From positions 51,212,001 through 51,276,000 of the forward strand of contig NC_135885.1 in NCBI RefSeq assembly GCF_964194155.1: 64,000 bases of DNA, in the 5' to 3' direction. The notes below the pieces were generated by a model. That model saw nothing but the letters and a program-made list of their open reading frames with translations, did not search any database and had not been told where the DNA came from. Shown here piece after piece: positions 6,476-61,740 of this stretch; the stretch's first letter is position 1; every line of letters starts with the position of its first letter. Both the position numbers and the translations under genes were made by a program. This DNA comes from Cetorhinus maximus (Eukaryota).

Positions 6476-8100
6476 GATCCTGATGTTGTCCTCCTGAAGG
6501 ATCAAAGAGAGAGACACATGGGTTAGCATACGTGTCCTAAGAACCTCCCTTGGTTATGTCTGAAGGCCCCTTCATGCATGCAGGAGAGTGCTGGTCACCA
6601 CTTGGATGGCCAGTGTGTAGTGCGCTCATTGGCTGTCCGAAGCCCCGCCCACCTCTGACCCACTCCACTTGACCGATTGGCGGCAGCTTTGGCCACTGGA
6701 CTGCATACGTACTCTCAGCTCAGGTGTGGGCATTCTCCTAACCTGCACTGCAAGGCTGTGCTGTTAGCTTGAAACATAATGGATTCTGGTTCAAACTTTA
6801 ATAAAGGCATTGCAAGGGGCTGTGAGCACCTCCACCAGTGATTGCTCCATAGCCAGCTTTCACAAAGGGATTCTACAACTTGCCCAATCGGCCAATTGCT
6901 TTGCTCCCCCGAAAACACACATTAATTTGCAGTCAGCGCCCGAGGGGTGAAAAGTTCTGGAGCATTTGGTGGCACCTTCATGCTTTTGCATTGCTTGAGT
7001 GGGCAGAAAAGCTTCAGAGGCCCAACTCCCAGCATGTCAATGGAGCTGCAGCTGAACGGTCTCAGCTACGGAACAATGCTCACTTTTGATAAGCTTTAAC
7101 AAGTGTGTGGCCACTTCCCCCACCCACACCTCCCCCCACACCCATGGCATGTGCTTCAGTATTTCCTTCGGTCTGTGCTGCCTTGCTCTCCACCCTCTGC
7201 CCCAGGCCTCACCTACACTGGAGCCGTTGCCCCGGCACCGAACTGAAAGCCAGCTGGGAAAAAATGAGTTGCCTATGCCCCTGCCCCCCTCCCTCCCCAC
7301 CGCACCCACCCCCGCAACCCTCCCCCCACTCCCCCACACCCCGGCTTTGAATGCGGGGCATCCCTTCCTTGATATCCTATGGGCAATGCTCATGAACCCT
7401 ACACAAGGTTGTGTGCACTCACCTCAAAGTTCATGTCGCCAGGTGCATGCCTTTTAAAGGGAGTCATGAAGCATGCCGTTCTGAAGTCACGCCGACATGG
7501 AGGGATGATTCTGGTGAGCAGGGCTTATGATGAGATGCAAATGTATTAAAATGATGTTCCTGATGAGCGGCAGGAAATGTGGCAGGCTGGTGATGGGTGG
7601 AGCAGCTGATGGCAAACTGGTTTCACAACAACGTAAAACTGATTTTTGGCCTTCTCACCATATTGTCCCCCCACTACCCACCATGATGCCCGCACCAACA
7701 GGGTCAGAAAATTCCAGCCTCAGCCTTCTTTTCCAAGTGCTCTTTTACCCGTAGCCTTACATACAATCACCACAGTAAAGATCTCATATGGACTCTGATT
7801 GAATGATGGATCATTCCTGTGAGGGGTTACTGGCTGATACCTCAGTTTTTGCAAAGAATCATACTACCCAAAGGTCATTCTAAATTTTTCCACTCTTTGA
7901 CAAGGAGAAGACTGTCAGGATTAACAGGGTGAGAAAGACAAAGATGGGAAGAGCAAAACATTATGAATGCTGGAAATCTGAAATAAGACAGCTAATACTG
8001 GAAATACACAGAATCTGTGGAGAGAAATAGAGTTAATGTTTCAGGTTGATGACCTTTCAACAGCACTGCTATTTTTTTAGAATGAAAAGCAGGGAGGATT

Positions 8101-11650: not shown

Positions 11651-11995
11651 CATCCGGCTTTGAATTGAAACACCCATTTCATGCAGCTGGCCTGAAGACT
11701 ACTATAGTCAGCAGTTGTAATACAAAGATATTATTGTGGAGCTGCGCAACTTAGTTTGGTGAAGTTAAATTTGCAGTCACTGAAAACTGATGCAGCACTG
11801 TTTGCAGTTTCCAGTTCAATGTTTATTTTTTTCCCTGCTGTGACATTGCAAAATGGACCATTTAATACAAAGATCAGTGTTTCTGCTCAAACCCACTGCA
11901 CTCCCCACTCCCCCACCTTCAAGATTCAGCATACCGTTCTCTAACTCGGCAGACCTGCTCCTTCCCTCGTTAGACCTGCTTCATCTCTGATGCAA

Positions 11996-12628
11996 CAAAA
12001 AAAGATAAAAGCAAAATACTGCGGATGCTTGAAATCTGAAAGAAAAACAAAATGCTGGGAAAACTCAACAGATCTGACAGCATCTGTGGAGAGAAAAACT
12101 GTTGACGTTTCGAGTCCGTATGACCCTTCTTCAGAGCTACAGAGAAGTGGAAATGTGGTTAAAGCTATGCTGCTTACCGGTGGAGCAGGTGAAGCTGGAT
12201 AGATGGTCACCTCTCCACCTATCACTGGCCCTCTATCCAGCTCTACCTGTCCCACCCCCCCCCCCCCTTAAACCAGCTTATATTTCACCTCTTTTCTATT
12301 TCTCCTTAGTTCTGTTGAAGAGTCATACAGACTCGAAACGTTAACTGTGTTCCTCTCCGCAGATGCTGCCAGACCTGCTGAGTTTTTCCAGGTATTTTTA
12401 TTTTTGTTTTGAGAGATTGACAAAGATGTCATGAACAAAAGGACAAAGGGCGTGTTAATGGTAGTAGTAAGGTACCTTTTTTAGCCCTTAACACTACCAT
12501 TAACAGTCCCTTTGTCCTTTCTCTGTAGCTTTGAAGAAGGGTCATACGGACTCGAAACGTCAACTCTGTTTTTCTCTCCACAGATGCTGTCAGGCCTGCT
12601 GAGTTTTTCCAGCATTTTCTGATTTTCT
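11996..12628. mobile_element. Penelope-like terminal-repeat insertion of four alternately oriented segments
   Basis: Segments oriented -,+,-,+ of the family ...gactcgaaacgttaactctg...cagatgctg...gagtttttccag; flanked by a 16-bp TSD with 2 mismatches (11980-11995, 12629-12644). Confidence 0.8.
12100..12138 (-). ncRNA. Minimal type-I hammerhead ribozyme motif (intact core)
   Basis: AGCU-CUGAAGA-A-GGGUC-AUACG-GACUC-GAAA-C-GUC-AACA: conserved core, 5-bp stem II, palindromic ACGU stem III, GUC triplet; stem I is weak. Confidence 0.65.
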
Positions 12629-14279
12629 TTCATCTTTGAAGCAAGTGATTTCAAAGCATTGCAACTACACGTGTAGGAAGTGTGCCCTTTGCAGTTGCCG
12701 TATCACCAAACTCAGCCTTGAAGTTATGGCATTCTCACAAGCATTAAGCTTTCTGCTTTTTAGCTTTCAATCTGGTAATAAACTCTGAAAGATGTAAGCA
12801 CTAAGATAAACCTGCTGAGTTTTTCCAGGTATTTTTGTTTTTGTTCTGAAAGATGTATGTCTAAATTAGGGTTAAGTCCTTTTAATGTTAGCAAACTGTA
12901 AATCTGCTGTAACGTGCAATCATATTCTTGCTTAGCACATGGAGCATTTCATTTCTCTCTGATGCACAGAATTCATGTACAGTGCATGGGTAATTGCCTA
13001 TAGCATTTACATTTGGTTGATTGAAGTTCCATGGGGTAGAGTACAGTTAATGATGTATATCATCTTGTTTGAGCACAATGCTTAGTGAAGTGAATTGTGA
13101 TTATTGGCTTAAGCTGTTATATTTGTTCCTTGCCTGTTTCTAATTAAGCTTTAAGTTTTCTGAGGCCAATTATTTTCTTACCTAAAAGATGTGTGTTTAT
13201 TAGCACCTGATTTCATCAGATTCTTTGACTTCTTGAGTTCAGGAAAAGTAAAAGAGGAAAATCAGGAAGCCTACATGGCAGCTAGGAACTCACACTCACA
13301 ATGCTGTCCAAAATATCTTAATGTCCTGAAAATCTGTCTGATGCTTTATTTCAGTACTTTGCTGCTTCCAAAGAAAGATAGCATAACTTCCTTTATGCTC
13401 CTTCACATTTTGCCCTGAATGAGATATACATCATCTATGAAAACAATTCCAAGTTCCACCAGGCTGACGTCGATAAAAAGCATGTCACAGCTTACAGTTT
13501 CTGTGAAAGCTGTACACAATTTGTGACTAATCCAGGGTCCATATTAGAATTTTAGGCTTGTTTGACATACCTGTGGGAAAATATAACCGAACATATAGGT
13601 ATATTTTCCTAATTGTAAGAAAACAGACAAACATAGGTCATCTCAGGAACAATTATTTTAATATTTTCATAAAGTCCAAATCAAAACTGATTTTGATTTT
13701 CTTGTAGATGAGTGAAATATACATGTTTCAGGTGAAACCATAATAAAAAGCGGATGGGTTAGCAGGTAACTGCTCTCGGTTGTTTCATTTTTCTTTAGGG
13801 CGTATAAAGTGTCTCTTTGATACACTTTGCAAGAAGAGGATACAGAAATAATATTGGTATGTATACATTTTAATGCTATAATCATTGAATACAATCACTG
13901 CGTTCACAACAAGGTTACAGCTTAATTTACTGCAGGCCATAGCTCTGCTCCAACTGTGCAGATCCTGGAGCTACTCCACGAATTGAAATCAATGTGCAGC
14001 CAGGCAGACAATGCCCATTTGGCAGTGGGTTAGGAGCAAGTACCATATGCCATCATCCAGAGTAAACTGTAGGCTCTGGACCATGAACTGACTTCAAGAC
14101 TCAAATGGCTTATTTCTCCCAGGTAGATGATTATTTCTCATGCTGGTTCTGAAGGCAGATATAGGTTTGTGCAGAAAGCAAACATTAACACTATAGGATG
14201 CAAGCAACTGAAATCACTACAGCTCAGATATTCAGGGATATCAATTATATTTTGGTAACTTCCAGGCTAGAAAATAAAA

Positions 14280-14752
14280 AGCAATACTCAAGAAGCTTGA
14301 CACTGTCCAGGACAAAGCAGCCCACTTGATTGGCACCACATCCACAAACATTCACTCCCTCCACCACCGATGCACAGTGGTAGCAGTGTGTACCATCTAC
14401 AAGATGCACTGCAGGAATTTATCAAGGCTCCTTCGACAGCACCTTCCAAACCCATGACCACTGCCATCTAGAAGGACAAGGGCAGCAGATAGATGGGAAC
14501 ACCACCACCTGGAAGTTTCCCTCCAAGTCACTCACCATCCTTACTTGGAAATATATAGCTGTTCCTTCACTGTCGCTGGGTCAAAATCCTGGAACTCCCT
14601 TCCTAACAGCACTATGGATGTACCTACACCACATGGACTGCAGCAGTTCAAGAAGACAGCTCACTGCCATCTTCTCTAGGGCAATTAGGGATGGGCAAAA
14701 AATGCTGGCCCAGCCAGTGGAGCCCACATCCCGTGAATGAATTAAAAAAAAA
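14280..14752 (+). mobile_element. Non-LTR retrotransposon 3' end (same family as 49437-51421)
   Basis: Closely matches about 50990-51420, including gggtcaaaatcctggaactc and gggcaattaggg...aaatgctggcc, followed by an A tail. Confidence 0.85.
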
Positions 14753-14819
14753 TAATCGTTATAAAAACACTGGTTCATGAGTATTGTGCCCGATTCTAGG
14801 CCCAGTAAATTAGGAAGGC

Positions 14820-15290
14820 TGTGAAGACATTGGAGAGGATGCAAAAAAGGTTTATGAGAATGGTTCCAAGACTGAGGGACTTCAGCTAGTTGGATAGATT
14901 AGAGAAGCTAGGGCTGTTCTCCTGAGAGAAGAGAAGGTTGAGGGGAAATTTGATTGGAGATGTTCAGAATCATGAGAGATCTGGATAGAGTAGATAGGGA
15001 GAAACTGATCCCATTGGTGGAAGGGTCAAGAACCAGAGGACATTGAGGACCAGAATGACAAAAGAACCAAAGGTGGCATGAGGAAAAACATTAACACAGT
15101 GTATGGTTATTATCTGCAATGTACAACCTGAGTGTGTGGTGGAAGCAGATTCAATCATGGCTTTCAAAGGGGAATTGGATAACTATCTGGGGAAAACAAA
15201 TTGCAGGATTATGGGAAAAGGGGAGTGGGACTAGCTGAGCTTCTCTTTCAAAGAGATGGCAATGACATAAAGGGCCTCTGTTCTGTGATA
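14820..15290 (+). mobile_element. CR1 LINE 3' fragment
   Basis: Degenerate LERMQKRF..., RRLRGxLI and TRGH coding remnants. Confidence 0.75.
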
Positions 15291-15672
15291 CCTGCCCATA
15301 ACAATTAGTCTTCCTAGTTCATCAATTTTATTCCTATTACCCTACAAATGTCAGGCCCAGTCCAGGTGCTCTCTTGGGTTTAGCCTTAGTGATAACTCCT
15401 GTAAGATGACCCGTGTTCTATGATCAGGAATTCACCTCTACTGCCCAACATCTAGTTATATGATAGTTTGACCAGGGGTTGTAAGAATGAACGTTTTGCT
15501 ATATTAATTGATTATTGAAAGTGTACCTCTCCTCAGGTAAAAACGTCTCCGATTGTTGAAATGTGACTGGTTAACACTTTAACAATATAAAGCCAGGTAT
15601 AAATTAAAATGCTTTCTTTTACAGTAAATGAAGAACAGAACAGTTTATAGCAAACTTTACTTTAACCTGGTA

Positions 15673-40039: not shown

Positions 40040-43000
40040 AACTGTCACCAAGATCGAGGCAATCTGATCAGCTGGCTTGGCCATGGCCCTCCCCTTCATT
40101 AGCCCACCTTGCCAAACTTCTTTCAATGCTCCCCCGTGTCCTAGCCCTGAACTCTCACCTTTTTCTAGTTTCTCATGCCCTCTCTGAACTTTTCTTGTCC
40201 ATGAGACCCACTTCCTTCTCCCTCAGTCTTATTCCCATTAAACTGCTCACTATCCAGCTTTCCCATTCATCCCATGTTAGCCGATATTGCTAACAGTTCT
40301 TTCTCTTTAGGGGTTGTCCCTCTCTCCTTAAAATCTGTTGTCATCACTCCTCCTCAAAAAACCAAGTCTTGACACCATCATCCTTGCAAAGTAGTGTCCC
40401 ATTTCCAACCTCCCTTTCCTCTCCAAAGTCCTCGAATGTATTGCCACCTCCCAAATCCGAGTCCATTTTTTTCAGAACCTTATGTTTGAATCCCTCCAAA
40501 CATGTTTCCAACCCTGCCACAGTACTGAAACAGCTCTTACACAAGACACGAATGACATCCTGTGACTGTGCCAAAGGCAAACTTTTTCTCTTTTAAAAAA
40601 AATCCTTTTTTCCCCCAAGGCCCTCGCTCCACAGAAACAAGTGACAGATGACCCTATGTTGTGCTTTCACAGAGCGATGATCCTAGTTCAGCTATTAACA
40701 CATTCTGCTATCTTACCTAATGCCACTATCAGCACCTGCTTTACTCTTTTAACGCTACCATTAACACTCCCTTTGTCCATGACATCTTTGTCAATCTCTC
40801 CTTAGCTCCCACCTATCCCTGACCTATTTTGTTCCGCCTGCTCCACCCCCTCTTAAGCAATATAATATCCATCATATTTCTACTTCTCTTTAGCTCTGAA
40901 GAGTCATATCGACTTGAAACGTTAACTCTGTTTCTCTCTCCACAGATGCTGCCAGACCTGAGTTTTTCTATCATGTTCTGTTTTTATTTTAAACTTTCCC
41001 TCTTCTCAACTTGTCTATAGCCTCCGACATGGTTGACCACACCATCCTCCTCCAACACCTCTCCACTGTCGTTCAGCTGGGTGAGATTACTCTCACACCG
41101 TTCCATCCTGATCTTTCTAATCATAGCCAGAGATTCACTTGTCATGGTTTCTCTTCCGGCTCCTGTACTGTTACATCTGATTCACCCAAGGATCTATCCT
41201 GGGCTGCCTGCTATTGTGCATCTACATGCTACCCTTCAGTGACATCATCCGAAAGCACAACGTAAGCTTTCATATGTTCGCTGAGGACACCCAGCTCTCT
41301 CTCCCCCCACCACCTCTCTCAACTCCTCTACTATTGCTAAATTATCAGATTGCTTAGCTGGCATCCAGTACGGCTGAGCAGAAATTTCTTCCAATTAATC
41401 ACTTGGCAAGACTGAAAACATTGTTTTCTGTCACTGTGGCAAGCTCCATTCCCTAAAAAATGATTCTATCCCTCTCCCTGGCAACAGTCTAAGATTAAGC
41501 CAGTCTGTTCACAACCTAGGTGTCACATTTAACCCACAGATGAACTTCTAACCTCATATTCGCACCATTGTCAAGACTGCCTATTTTCACTTCCGTAACA
41601 TGGCCCAATTTTGCCCGTCTCAGCTCATCTGCTGAAATCCTCATTCATACCTTTGTTACCTCTTGGTTTGATCAATTCAATACACTATGGTCTCCCACAT
41701 TCTATCCTCTATAGACTCAAGGTCATCCAAAACTCTGTTGCTTGTGTCTTAACTTGCCATAAGTCCCATTCCCCTATCGCCCCTGTGCTCGCTGACCTAC
41801 ACTGGCTCCCTGTCAAGCAACGACTTGATTTCAAAATTCTCATCCTTGTTTGCAAATTCCTCCATGGTCTCACCCCTCCGTAGATCCGTAACGTCCCTCT
41901 ACACCACCGCAAGATATCTGTACTCTAATTCTGGCCTATTGAGCATCCTCGATTTTAATCGCTCCACCACAGGCGGCTGCGCCTTCAGCAGGCTACGTTG
42001 TAAGCTCTAGAATACCCTTATAGACTCATAGATGTCTACAGCACAGGAGGAGGCCATTTGGCCCATCATGTCCACGCCGGTCAACAAAAATCTGACTACA
42101 CTAATCCCATTTTCCAGTGCTTGGCTCATAGCCCTGGAGGCTATGGCAACGCAAGTGAATATCTAAACACTTGTTAAATGTTATGAGTGTTTCTGACTTA
42201 ACCACCCTTTCAGGCAGTGAATTCCAGACTCCCACCACCTTCTAGGTGAAAAAAATTTCTCCTCAACTCCCCTCTTAGCCTTCTACCTCTTACCTTAAAT
42301 CTATGCCCCCTGGGTATTGACCCCTCTACTAATGGAAAAGGTGCCTTCCTATCCACCCTATCTATGCCCCTCATAATCTTATACACCTCTATCAGGTCGC
42401 CTCTCAACCTTCAAGGAAAACAACCACAGCCTATCCAATCTTTCCTCATAACTCAGACCCTCCAGCCCAGGCAGCATCCTGGTAAATCTCCTCTGCATCC
42501 ACCTCTCCAGTGCAATCACATCCTTCCTATAATGTGGTGGCTAGAACTGCACCCAGTACTCCAGCGTTTCATACAGTTCCAGCATAACCTCCCTGCTCTT
42601 GTATTCTATGCCTCAGCTAATAAACGCAAGTATCCCATATGCCCTCTTAACCACCTTATCTACCTGCCCTGCTACCTTCAGGGATCTATGGATATGCACG
42701 CCAAGGTCCCTCTGATCTTCAGTACTTTCCAGGATCCTACCATTCATAGTGTAATCCCTTGCCTTGTTAGCCCTCCCCAAGTGCATTACCTCACACTTTC
42801 CCGGGTTGAATTCCATTTGCCACTGCTCTGCCCACCTGACCAGTCCATTGATATCCTCCTGCAGTTTATGGCTATCCTCCCTCCCTATTTACCACCCTAC
42901 CGATTTTCATGTCATCCGCAAACTTCTTGAACATACCCCCTACATTTAAGTCCAAATCATTTATGTACATCACAAACAGCAAGGGCCCCAGCACCGAGCC

Positions 43001-60929: not shown

Positions 60930-61740
60930 ATAAGAACATAAGAAAAAGGAACAGGAGGCCATTCGGCCCCTCGAGCCTGTTCTGCCACTCAATAAGATCA
61001 TGGCTGATGATTTTGTATTTTGATTTCCACATTCCCATCTACATCCCTGATTCCCTTGCCTAACAAGCATTTATCTACCTTTGCCTTAAAAATATTCAAT
61101 GACCCCACCTCCACCAGCTTCTGAGGCAGAGAAGTCTCACAACCCTCAGAAAAAATTTCTCCTCATCTCTGTCCTAAAAGGGTGACCCCTAATTTTAAAA
61201 CAATGTCCCCTAGTTCTGGACTCATCTACAAGAAGAAACATCATTTCAACATCCACCTTGTCAAGGCCATTCAGGATCTTGTATACTTCAATCAAATCGC
61301 CCCTCACTCTTCTAAACTCCAGTGGAAACAAGCCCAGTCTGTCCAACCTTTCCTCATAAGACAACCCACTTATTCCAGATATCAATCTAGTAAACCTCCT
61401 CTGAACCACCTCCAATGCATTTACATCCTTCCTTAAATAAGGAGGCCAAAACTATACATAGTATTTGAGGATAAAAGCAAAATACTGTGGATGCTGGAAA
61501 TCTGAAACAAAAAACAGAAAATGCTGGAAAAACTCTGAAGAGTCATACGGGCTCGAAAGGTTAACTCTGTTTTTCTCTCCACAGATGCTGTTAGACCTGA
61601 GTTTTTTCAGCATTTTCTGTTTTTGTTACAATATTCGAGGCGGAGTCTCACCAATGCCCTGTATAACTGAAGCATAACATCCTTACTTTTATGTTAAATC
61701 CCTCTCGTAATAAAGGATAGCATTCCACTAGTCTTAATTA
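60930..61740 (-). mobile_element. CR1 3' fragment with nested fold-back Penelope piece (about 61470-61628)
   Basis: ORF 61146-61415 has VQRRFTRLI...RGDLIEVYKIL; the insert has inverted arms aacagaaaatgctggaaaaactc / gagttttttcagcattttctgtt. Confidence 0.88.

Follow-up and report, generated by a model that had tools for sequence, protein, structure and literature searches.

Three hammerhead motifs in a probably nested Penelope-like insertion of Cetorhinus maximus: probable inert passengers in a retroelement family dominated by a non-canonical position 6

The 64,000-nt stretch of Cetorhinus maximus DNA analyzed here (called the window) contains, at 11996-12628, three hammerhead ribozyme motifs which probably are inert passengers in a stack of Penelope-like element (PLE) end pieces, belonging to a family that likely spreads from uncut RNA without a need for fast self-cleavage. 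According to this explanation, an older head-to-head insertion with a 16-bp target site duplication (TSD) would later have been entered in its inverted arm by a younger subfamily, and the three motifs would not constitute a working ribozyme cluster. For the family as a whole, RNA polymerase II is assumed to begin transcription with the base that opens hammerhead stem I, with a TATA box at -29/-31. A protein with reverse transcriptase (RT) and GIY-YIG domains would then nick DNA and initiate cDNA synthesis 100-140 nt farther downstream, at either of two internal sites, as suggested by analogy to an Anolis element. Priming at two sites would yield short copies with or without a tail, often as an inverted and a direct arm between TSDs, and the RNA copied in this process is likely uncut.

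All three motifs proposed in the first-pass annotation were found with the strands, cores and sites described there. Motif 1 (12100-12138, minus strand) reads AGCU, core CUGAAGA, an extra A, stem II GGGUC/GACUC around the loop AUACG, then GAAA, CGUC and AACA; its core is canonical, the cut at the GUC site is predicted between 12104 and 12103, and stem I pairs at 2/4 positions. Motif 2 (12308-12346, plus strand) is composed of AGUU, CUGUUGA, A, GAGUC/GACUC around AUACA, GAAA, CGUU and AACU, with a perfect 4-bp stem I (AGUU:AACU) and a GUU site after 12342; its A6U core is the state common to its subfamily. Motif 3 (12527-12565, plus strand) consists of AGCU, UUGAAGA, A, GGGUC/GACUC around AUACG, GAAA, CGUC and AACU, has a GUC site after 12561 and pairs at 3/4 positions of stem I, and its C3U change is rare in the family. 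The extra nucleotide after A9, the G10.1-C11.1 pair, a 5-bp stem II and a palindromic, loopless ACGU stem III are present in all three. Compared with the minimal hammerhead (min-HHR) core CUGANGA, GAAA and NUH, motif 1 fits, motif 2 carries U6 and motif 3 carries U3 together with G8. An Rfam scan of the window yielded no hammerhead family match at E<=5.

Seven further copies had been named in the window (near 8030, 23194, 24988, 40892, 54350, 56640 and 61535), all of which were recovered by BLAST. The accompanying suggestion of a very abundant ribozyme family is borne out, and chance does not account for the motif: a 35-mer of the family that spans the U6 core and differs from motif 2 by one letter has 4,315 exact matches in the genome versus 0 for the reversed control. 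The copies near 8030 and 23194, together with loci L036 and L197, represent another hammerhead family, in which stem II reads AGGUC/GACCU and the loop has 3 nt, and the one near 8030 has U6, too. Identical losses of 3 nt in the core were observed in the copies at 40892-40930 and 61470-61630, the latter being a short fold-back whose direct arm begins at C3.

The TSD flanking the three motifs was confirmed at 11980-11995 and 12629-12644 (plus strand) with an identity of 14/16, a value attained by 10 out of 20,000 pairs of positions drawn at random from the window, and so was the fold-back, as inverted arms are present at the locus. The description as one insertion is probably wrong, since the sequence around motif 2 belongs to another and younger subfamily (B) and breaks the left arm of the older subfamily (A). 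This left, inverted arm (11996-12211, minus strand) corresponds to the 3′ end of an A terminal repeat (pLTR) with the optional tail of about 35-40 nt and ends at +138 from C3; from 12005 to 12209 it is 85-86% identical to the A-type copies L037 and L052, its best genomic matches lying at 84-88%. The B pLTR piece (12212-12411, plus strand, no tail) replaces 19 nt of the A arm, which resumes at 12412-12472 (minus strand) with 93.5-94.9% identity to L037/L052. The direct A arm starts with 12474-12520 (plus strand), which forms a 35-bp hairpin with 12438-12472, and after a 112-nt gap deleting the TATA region it is completed by a 3′ end (12519-12628, plus strand) that reaches +97 from C3 and is 90-94% identical to L037/L052. 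The tail is found on the left arm only. Mapped on L037, the left arm runs from 1711 to 1501 (12006-12209) and resumes from 1481 to 1420 (12411-12472), with the B piece in the place of reference positions 1500-1482, while the right arm runs from 1408 to 1454, skips 112 nt and restarts at 1567; the skipped nucleotides may have been lost at integration or later. Arms 1 and 3 are identical in 98/112 columns, each of them matches the B piece in 87-88/112, and the motif 2 piece is 78% identical to the others. The 200-nt B piece is 93-97% identical to dispersed genomic copies and 93-95% to the pLTRs of the full-length element L242 (95.5% over 154 nt), versus 77-80% to A copies.

This arrangement is probably an older head-to-head pLTR insertion of a Penelope-like element, carrying motifs 1 and 3, into which a B copy with motif 2 was later inserted at a favoured site. 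The order of nesting is suggested by the identities, B being closer to its relatives than the A arms are to theirs, though the age gap appears modest given the 90-94% of the right A arm, and no separate TSD flanks B at this locus. Contigs of a related organism (organism C) span both outer junctions, and a further match covers 74 nt of the left arm with a single difference, so the outer insertion predates that split. Among the matches listed, no organism C piece crosses a B junction, and the contigs of related organisms contained neither an empty site nor a B-less ortholog. At the independent locus L003, the inverted arm of an A copy is likewise broken at reference position 1481, there by a 1.46-kb B piece which includes the endonuclease region, and this is the only other such A/B junction among the loci examined. 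In the direct arm, part of the homologous region is missing both from L003:1-1949 and from the locus described here.

The surroundings of the element show two additional features. Another insertion belonging to this family, 48 nt long and composed of a short piece resembling the inverted tail end and a B-type 3′ piece, is located between perfect 13-nt direct repeats at 12784-12857, 170 nt right of the element. On the other side, 400-600 nt left of the element, a CpG-rich stretch of single-copy depth (11401-11600; 15 CpG per 200 nt, 61% GC), which is also found in organism C, is possibly a host promoter. In a search for a host gene, 9 of the window's 25 longest frames were compared with Pfam, and none had a match.

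That the motifs are minimal type-I hammerheads of Penelope-like pLTRs, as had been proposed, is borne out by full-length elements with RT and endonuclease (EN) which carry the same motif in both pLTRs, and a frame for RT and GIY-YIG is found upstream of many copies. Locus L242 contains an 847-aa frame and direct hammerheads 3,288 nt apart, both with CUGUUGA, and in L151 the direct hammerheads are 3,254 nt apart and read UUGUUGA and CUGUUGA; these are the two loci with full-length spacing of hammerheads flanking the frame among 18 long-frame loci plus L151. Pfam RVT_1 was matched in the L242 frame with E 2.1e-4 and GIY-YIG in the related copy L003 with E 5e-4 (one of two proteins scanned), both below the curated cut-off. 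The L242 frame also has a CX4CxxC linker (CNRRRCNTC) and the sequence VYCIRCSQCGFLYIG, in agreement with the type definition given in PMC8557442, and the linker points to the Neptune/Nematis type. Together, the protein features suggest an EN+ Penelope-like element of the Neptune/Nematis type. The inverted 5′-truncated pLTR, the optional tail and the TSD are all found at the present locus. In a set of 60 pattern-picked copies, 26 had an inverted hammerhead partner within 1.5 kb and 3 a same-strand partner, and TSD-like repeats of 10-18 nt surrounded 33, a raw count with no chance control. At the fold-back junctions of L293, L294, L301, L303 and L339, the inverted arm stops near stem I and the direct arm restarts at the 3′ strand of stem I, so that stem I complementarity apparently acts as microhomology at these junctions.

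The putative promoter noted upstream of motif 2 was likewise recovered, namely a TATA-like box at -29 and directly at the motif an initiator-like TTAGTT (12279-12312, plus strand), in which the A opens stem I and is the inferred RNA start. Of the 206 copies that have upstream sequence, 125 show TATAWW at -29 and 33 show it at -31, counted from this first A. The 5′ ends of 93 arms, given relative to C3, included 15 at -6 to +2 (11 of them at -4 to -2), 19 scattered over +5 to +47, and 3/93 at the cleavage site (+30 to +33); the sample was drawn with a 35-mer that lies downstream of the ribozyme and has 20,505 matches in the genome, the arms come from the first 100 places listed and their neighbourhoods, and some of them share one insertion. 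Of the 89 matches to a search for copies carrying a purine just before the cut site, 51 are point changes or other small ones, 5 are deletions inside the copy and 33 are junctions, with about two loci (L347 and L293) mis-called in opposite directions by the regex used for sorting. Cut-site junctions accordingly amount to about 0.4-0.55% of the subfamily, doubled for unseen pyrimidines and with the subfamily size of 12,000-15,400 being an estimate, versus a background of 0.48% per nucleotide that rests on 19 ends among the 93 arms; the rate of 5′ ends at stem I is 3.9% per nucleotide. In this mostly U6 subfamily (CUGUUGA in 40/55 parsed members), no excess of copy 5′ ends above background was therefore seen at the cleavage site. 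Since copies pile up at stem I and show no such excess, the RNAs that served as templates probably started at stem I and had not been cut. Still, a missing footprint is not proof of absent cutting, because cut 3′ pieces may never be copied. Splicing as the source of the 5′-end peak was rejected, as short copies share no upstream exon, and a sigma-70 promoter scan, a model irrelevant to a vertebrate, remained at chance level. For an Anolis PLE studied in vitro, PMC11167929 reports that hammerhead mutants inserted normally and that the ribozyme cut only when protein was added.

The core substitutions had made cleavage doubtful in the first-pass annotation; reading them as decay can be upheld for C3U of motif 3 (TTGAAGA in 3/271 parsed motifs) and not for CUGUUGA of motif 2. 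Among 39,181 exact matches to the motif frame in the 4.0-Gb genome (one frame covered, three loop letters free, reversed controls 0, biased to young copies), 22,287 (57%) have U6, 8,503 (22%) A6 and 8,391 (21%) C or G6. When the loop was fixed as AUACG, 4,270 A6 and 4,637 U6 motifs were obtained among 9,292. CUGUUGA is not a product of decay, as U6 is the genome-wide majority and two full-length elements, L242 and L151, carry U6 at both ends. Large C6 subfamilies with CUGCUGA or CUGCCGA were also encountered (L098, L111, L253, L259), some of them with a stem II change from U-A to C-G. The doubt that the copies at this locus still cleave nevertheless appears justified by the C3U of motif 3 and the U6 of motif 2. 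Changes in the CUGA turn reduce activity (PMC3088659, PMC9901934 and PMC7151607): a natural A6C hammerhead is described as cutting at under 0.1 per min (PMC3088659), and in a full mutational scan of another hammerhead all mutants of the turn were low in activity except the C3G/G8C swap (PMC9901934). On the other hand, an A6C hammerhead favours Mn2+, cuts well with it and still cuts at 10 mM Mg2+ (PMC7151607). No cleavage measurement for A6U in a min-HHR architecture was found in the literature searched.

Apart from position 6, the motif is well kept. In 271 motifs parsed from non-random loci, conservation reaches 96% or more at each of C3, U4, G5, G8, A9, A13 and A14, and the extra A is present in 269 of these motifs. 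C11.1 and G12 vary in 32 and 29 of these copies, the stem III CpG in 42 and 32 and the loop CpG in 64 and 34, so that C11.1/G12 variation, close to that of the stem III CpG and somewhat under that of the loop CpG, is as expected of neutral CpG decay. A covariation check on 11 hand-picked rows across subfamilies, which are related to each other and for which the shuffle control is not a probability, found stem II 100% paired with three double changes, whereas stem I showed zero double changes; double compensatory changes inside the main subfamilies are rare, and subfamily A has a C-A mismatch in stem I. The constant core letters and the kept pairing of stem II argue for a fold under selection, which may still cut slowly or with the help of a protein. 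A further property of the A6 core is that CUGAUGA contains an AUG 7 nt past the inferred RNA start (e.g., L242:2162-2300), which starts a frame of 9 codons whose end coincides with the cut site in the GUU variants. Each of A6U, A6C, A6G and U7A abolishes this AUG, while another upstream AUG stays; that its removal is the reason for the spread of non-AUG cores is speculative.

The two plus-strand motifs had also been read as having the layout of a double hammerhead. This reading is not supported, as they derive from different subfamilies and same-strand pairs were as rare as stated above, both of which indicate that the tandem pair is likely accidental; to judge from the full-length elements, the natural hammerhead pair is formed by the two pLTRs about 3.3 kb apart. 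In a modeled read-through plus-strand RNA, arm 1 folds onto arm 3 and locks motif 3 in a duplex, the predicted cost of a double hammerhead being +81.4 kcal/mol. An RNA starting at 12308 would avoid arm 1 at a predicted +21.9 kcal/mol, compared to +23.9 to +110.3 kcal/mol for 11 other natural same-strand pairs. As the ViennaRNA model omits core contacts and over-penalises hammerhead junctions, these costs are used for comparison alone, and absolute fold probabilities were discarded as meaningless for such junctions. The better of the two possible cores would combine the U6 enzyme strand with the GUC of motif 3. On the minus strand, motif 1 is without a partner and predicted to be double-stranded.

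A short transcript carrying motifs 2 and 3 and lacking arm 1 is thus possible, and it could be imagined that the TATA/initiator of the B piece drives an RNA from 12308 in which the enzyme strand of motif 2 slowly cuts the GUC strand of motif 3 after 12561. The promoter-like motifs are in place, the two motifs would pair through the perfect stem I AGUU:AACU and a 4-bp ACGU stem III, the 35-bp hairpin at 12438-12520 would bring them together, and the modeled cost is the lowest of the 12 natural same-strand pairs; the cutting retained by A6C hammerheads at 10 mM Mg2+ or with Mn2+ (PMC7151607) points in the same direction. Nevertheless, we consider such cutting improbable, because the first core has U6 and the second C3U plus a stem I mismatch, because the fold lies far above the predicted minimum even if the model over-penalises junctions, and its cost rises to +81.4 in read-through RNA, and because even canonical minimal hammerheads are described as poor cutters when acting as dimers (PMC4209133). 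Slightly less probable still is an origin of the whole 633-nt unit from a single integration, either by a template switch between the RNAs of two subfamilies or as a mobile composite. Everything lies within one TSD, B begins at a position homologous to the A break, as annealing during synthesis would yield, and L003 has a similar layout. However, the L003 inversion and deletion breakpoints differ and its B piece is much longer, the divergence of B from its relatives is clearly smaller than that between the A arms, and no second full copy was present among 40 scored candidates, the best others being partial with 79-82% identity.

At the level of the family, and compatible with an inert locus, the U6 hammerhead might be a working variant that is rescued by the element protein or another cation and cuts so late that cut RNA is never copied. 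The preservation of G8, G12, the C3-G8 pair and the ACGU palindrome across subfamilies would fit with this, as would the dependence of the Anolis hammerhead on added protein (PMC11167929) and the good cutting of A6C with Mn2+ (PMC7151607). In view of the absent excess of copies beginning at the cut site and the low activity of CUGA-turn mutants, bar C3G/G8C, in another hammerhead (PMC9901934), we regard this as rather unlikely, though clearly less so than the two locus-level alternatives. Somewhat better placed, yet still tentative, is the idea that the dominant Penelope-like lineages swapped the "invariant" A6 for U or C under selection on the rest of the fold, with the hammerhead serving mainly as a folded 5′-end signal of the template RNA or as a protein-gated slow cutter. 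The preferred explanation, a stack of inert end pieces from a family spreading via uncut RNA, is in line with two considerations. Lineages with U, C or G6 have been no less successful in multiplying than the A6 lineages, which makes it likely that fast self-cleavage is not required for spread. Furthermore, most intact copies lack the letter normally required for fast self-cutting and hence likely spread with little or no cutting.

Much of what is seen here resembles known systems. Minimal hammerheads, inverted pLTRs and TSDs are already published for PLEs. The PLE min-HHRs of Cervera and De la Pena (2014; PMC4209133) share the U-rich 5′ flank, the short stem I and the pLTR location, the extra nucleotide between 9 and 10.1, G10.1-C11.1, the palindromic loopless stem III, and the thousands of mostly solitary truncated copies. 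In contrast, their consensus is CUGANGAH and every row examined of the supplementary alignment has A6, whereas U6 plus C/G6 make up 78% of the motif-frame matches here; cartilaginous fish were absent from the searched supplement text of that paper. With the Neptune/Nematis PLEs (PMC8557442, PMC3846280) the family has in common the order of RT, CX2-5CxxC linker and GIY-YIG containing two internal cysteines, direct pLTRs (here at a distance of about 3.3 kb), a head-to-head inverted arm, the TSD, an optional tail of 30-40 nt on one arm only, TATA and initiator-like pLTR motifs, and secondary insertion into an earlier copy. Unlike full elements of this type, the present locus has no ORF. The A6C hammerhead of phage Bcep176 (PMC3088659, PMC7151607) also is a natural change of position 6, but it is a single intergenic phage ribozyme, while the A6U and A6C seen here belong to mass-amplified subfamilies of a retroelement whose hammerhead architecture is dimer-only. 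Animal non-LTR retrozymes (bioRxiv 10.64898/2026.07.22.740005) are likewise non-coding, PLE-derived and equipped with type-I hammerheads, and the locus resembles them in having two same-strand motifs, 219 nt apart. Retrozymes, however, are described as a single unit repeated in tandem, each copy having its own complete hammerhead, and retrozyme identity was rejected for this locus, since its plus motifs belong to different subfamilies (87/112 identical) and are separated by an inverted piece and not arranged head-to-tail.

On its own, the locus is an ordinary pile of retroelement ends and of little weight. What is worth keeping is that a non-canonical position 6 dominates family-wide and that no cut-site footprint was seen in the subfamily tested. 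Tens of thousands of copies, full-length elements included, carry a core change by which cleavage is expected to be slowed. About three quarters of these motifs would escape descriptor searches in which CUGA is fixed. This bears on the open question of why PLEs keep hammerheads that are poor in vitro and dispensable for insertion in one reconstituted system. If the reading proposed here is true, the coexisting A6, U6 and C6 subfamilies would provide a natural series on which the purpose of the PLE hammerhead may be tested.
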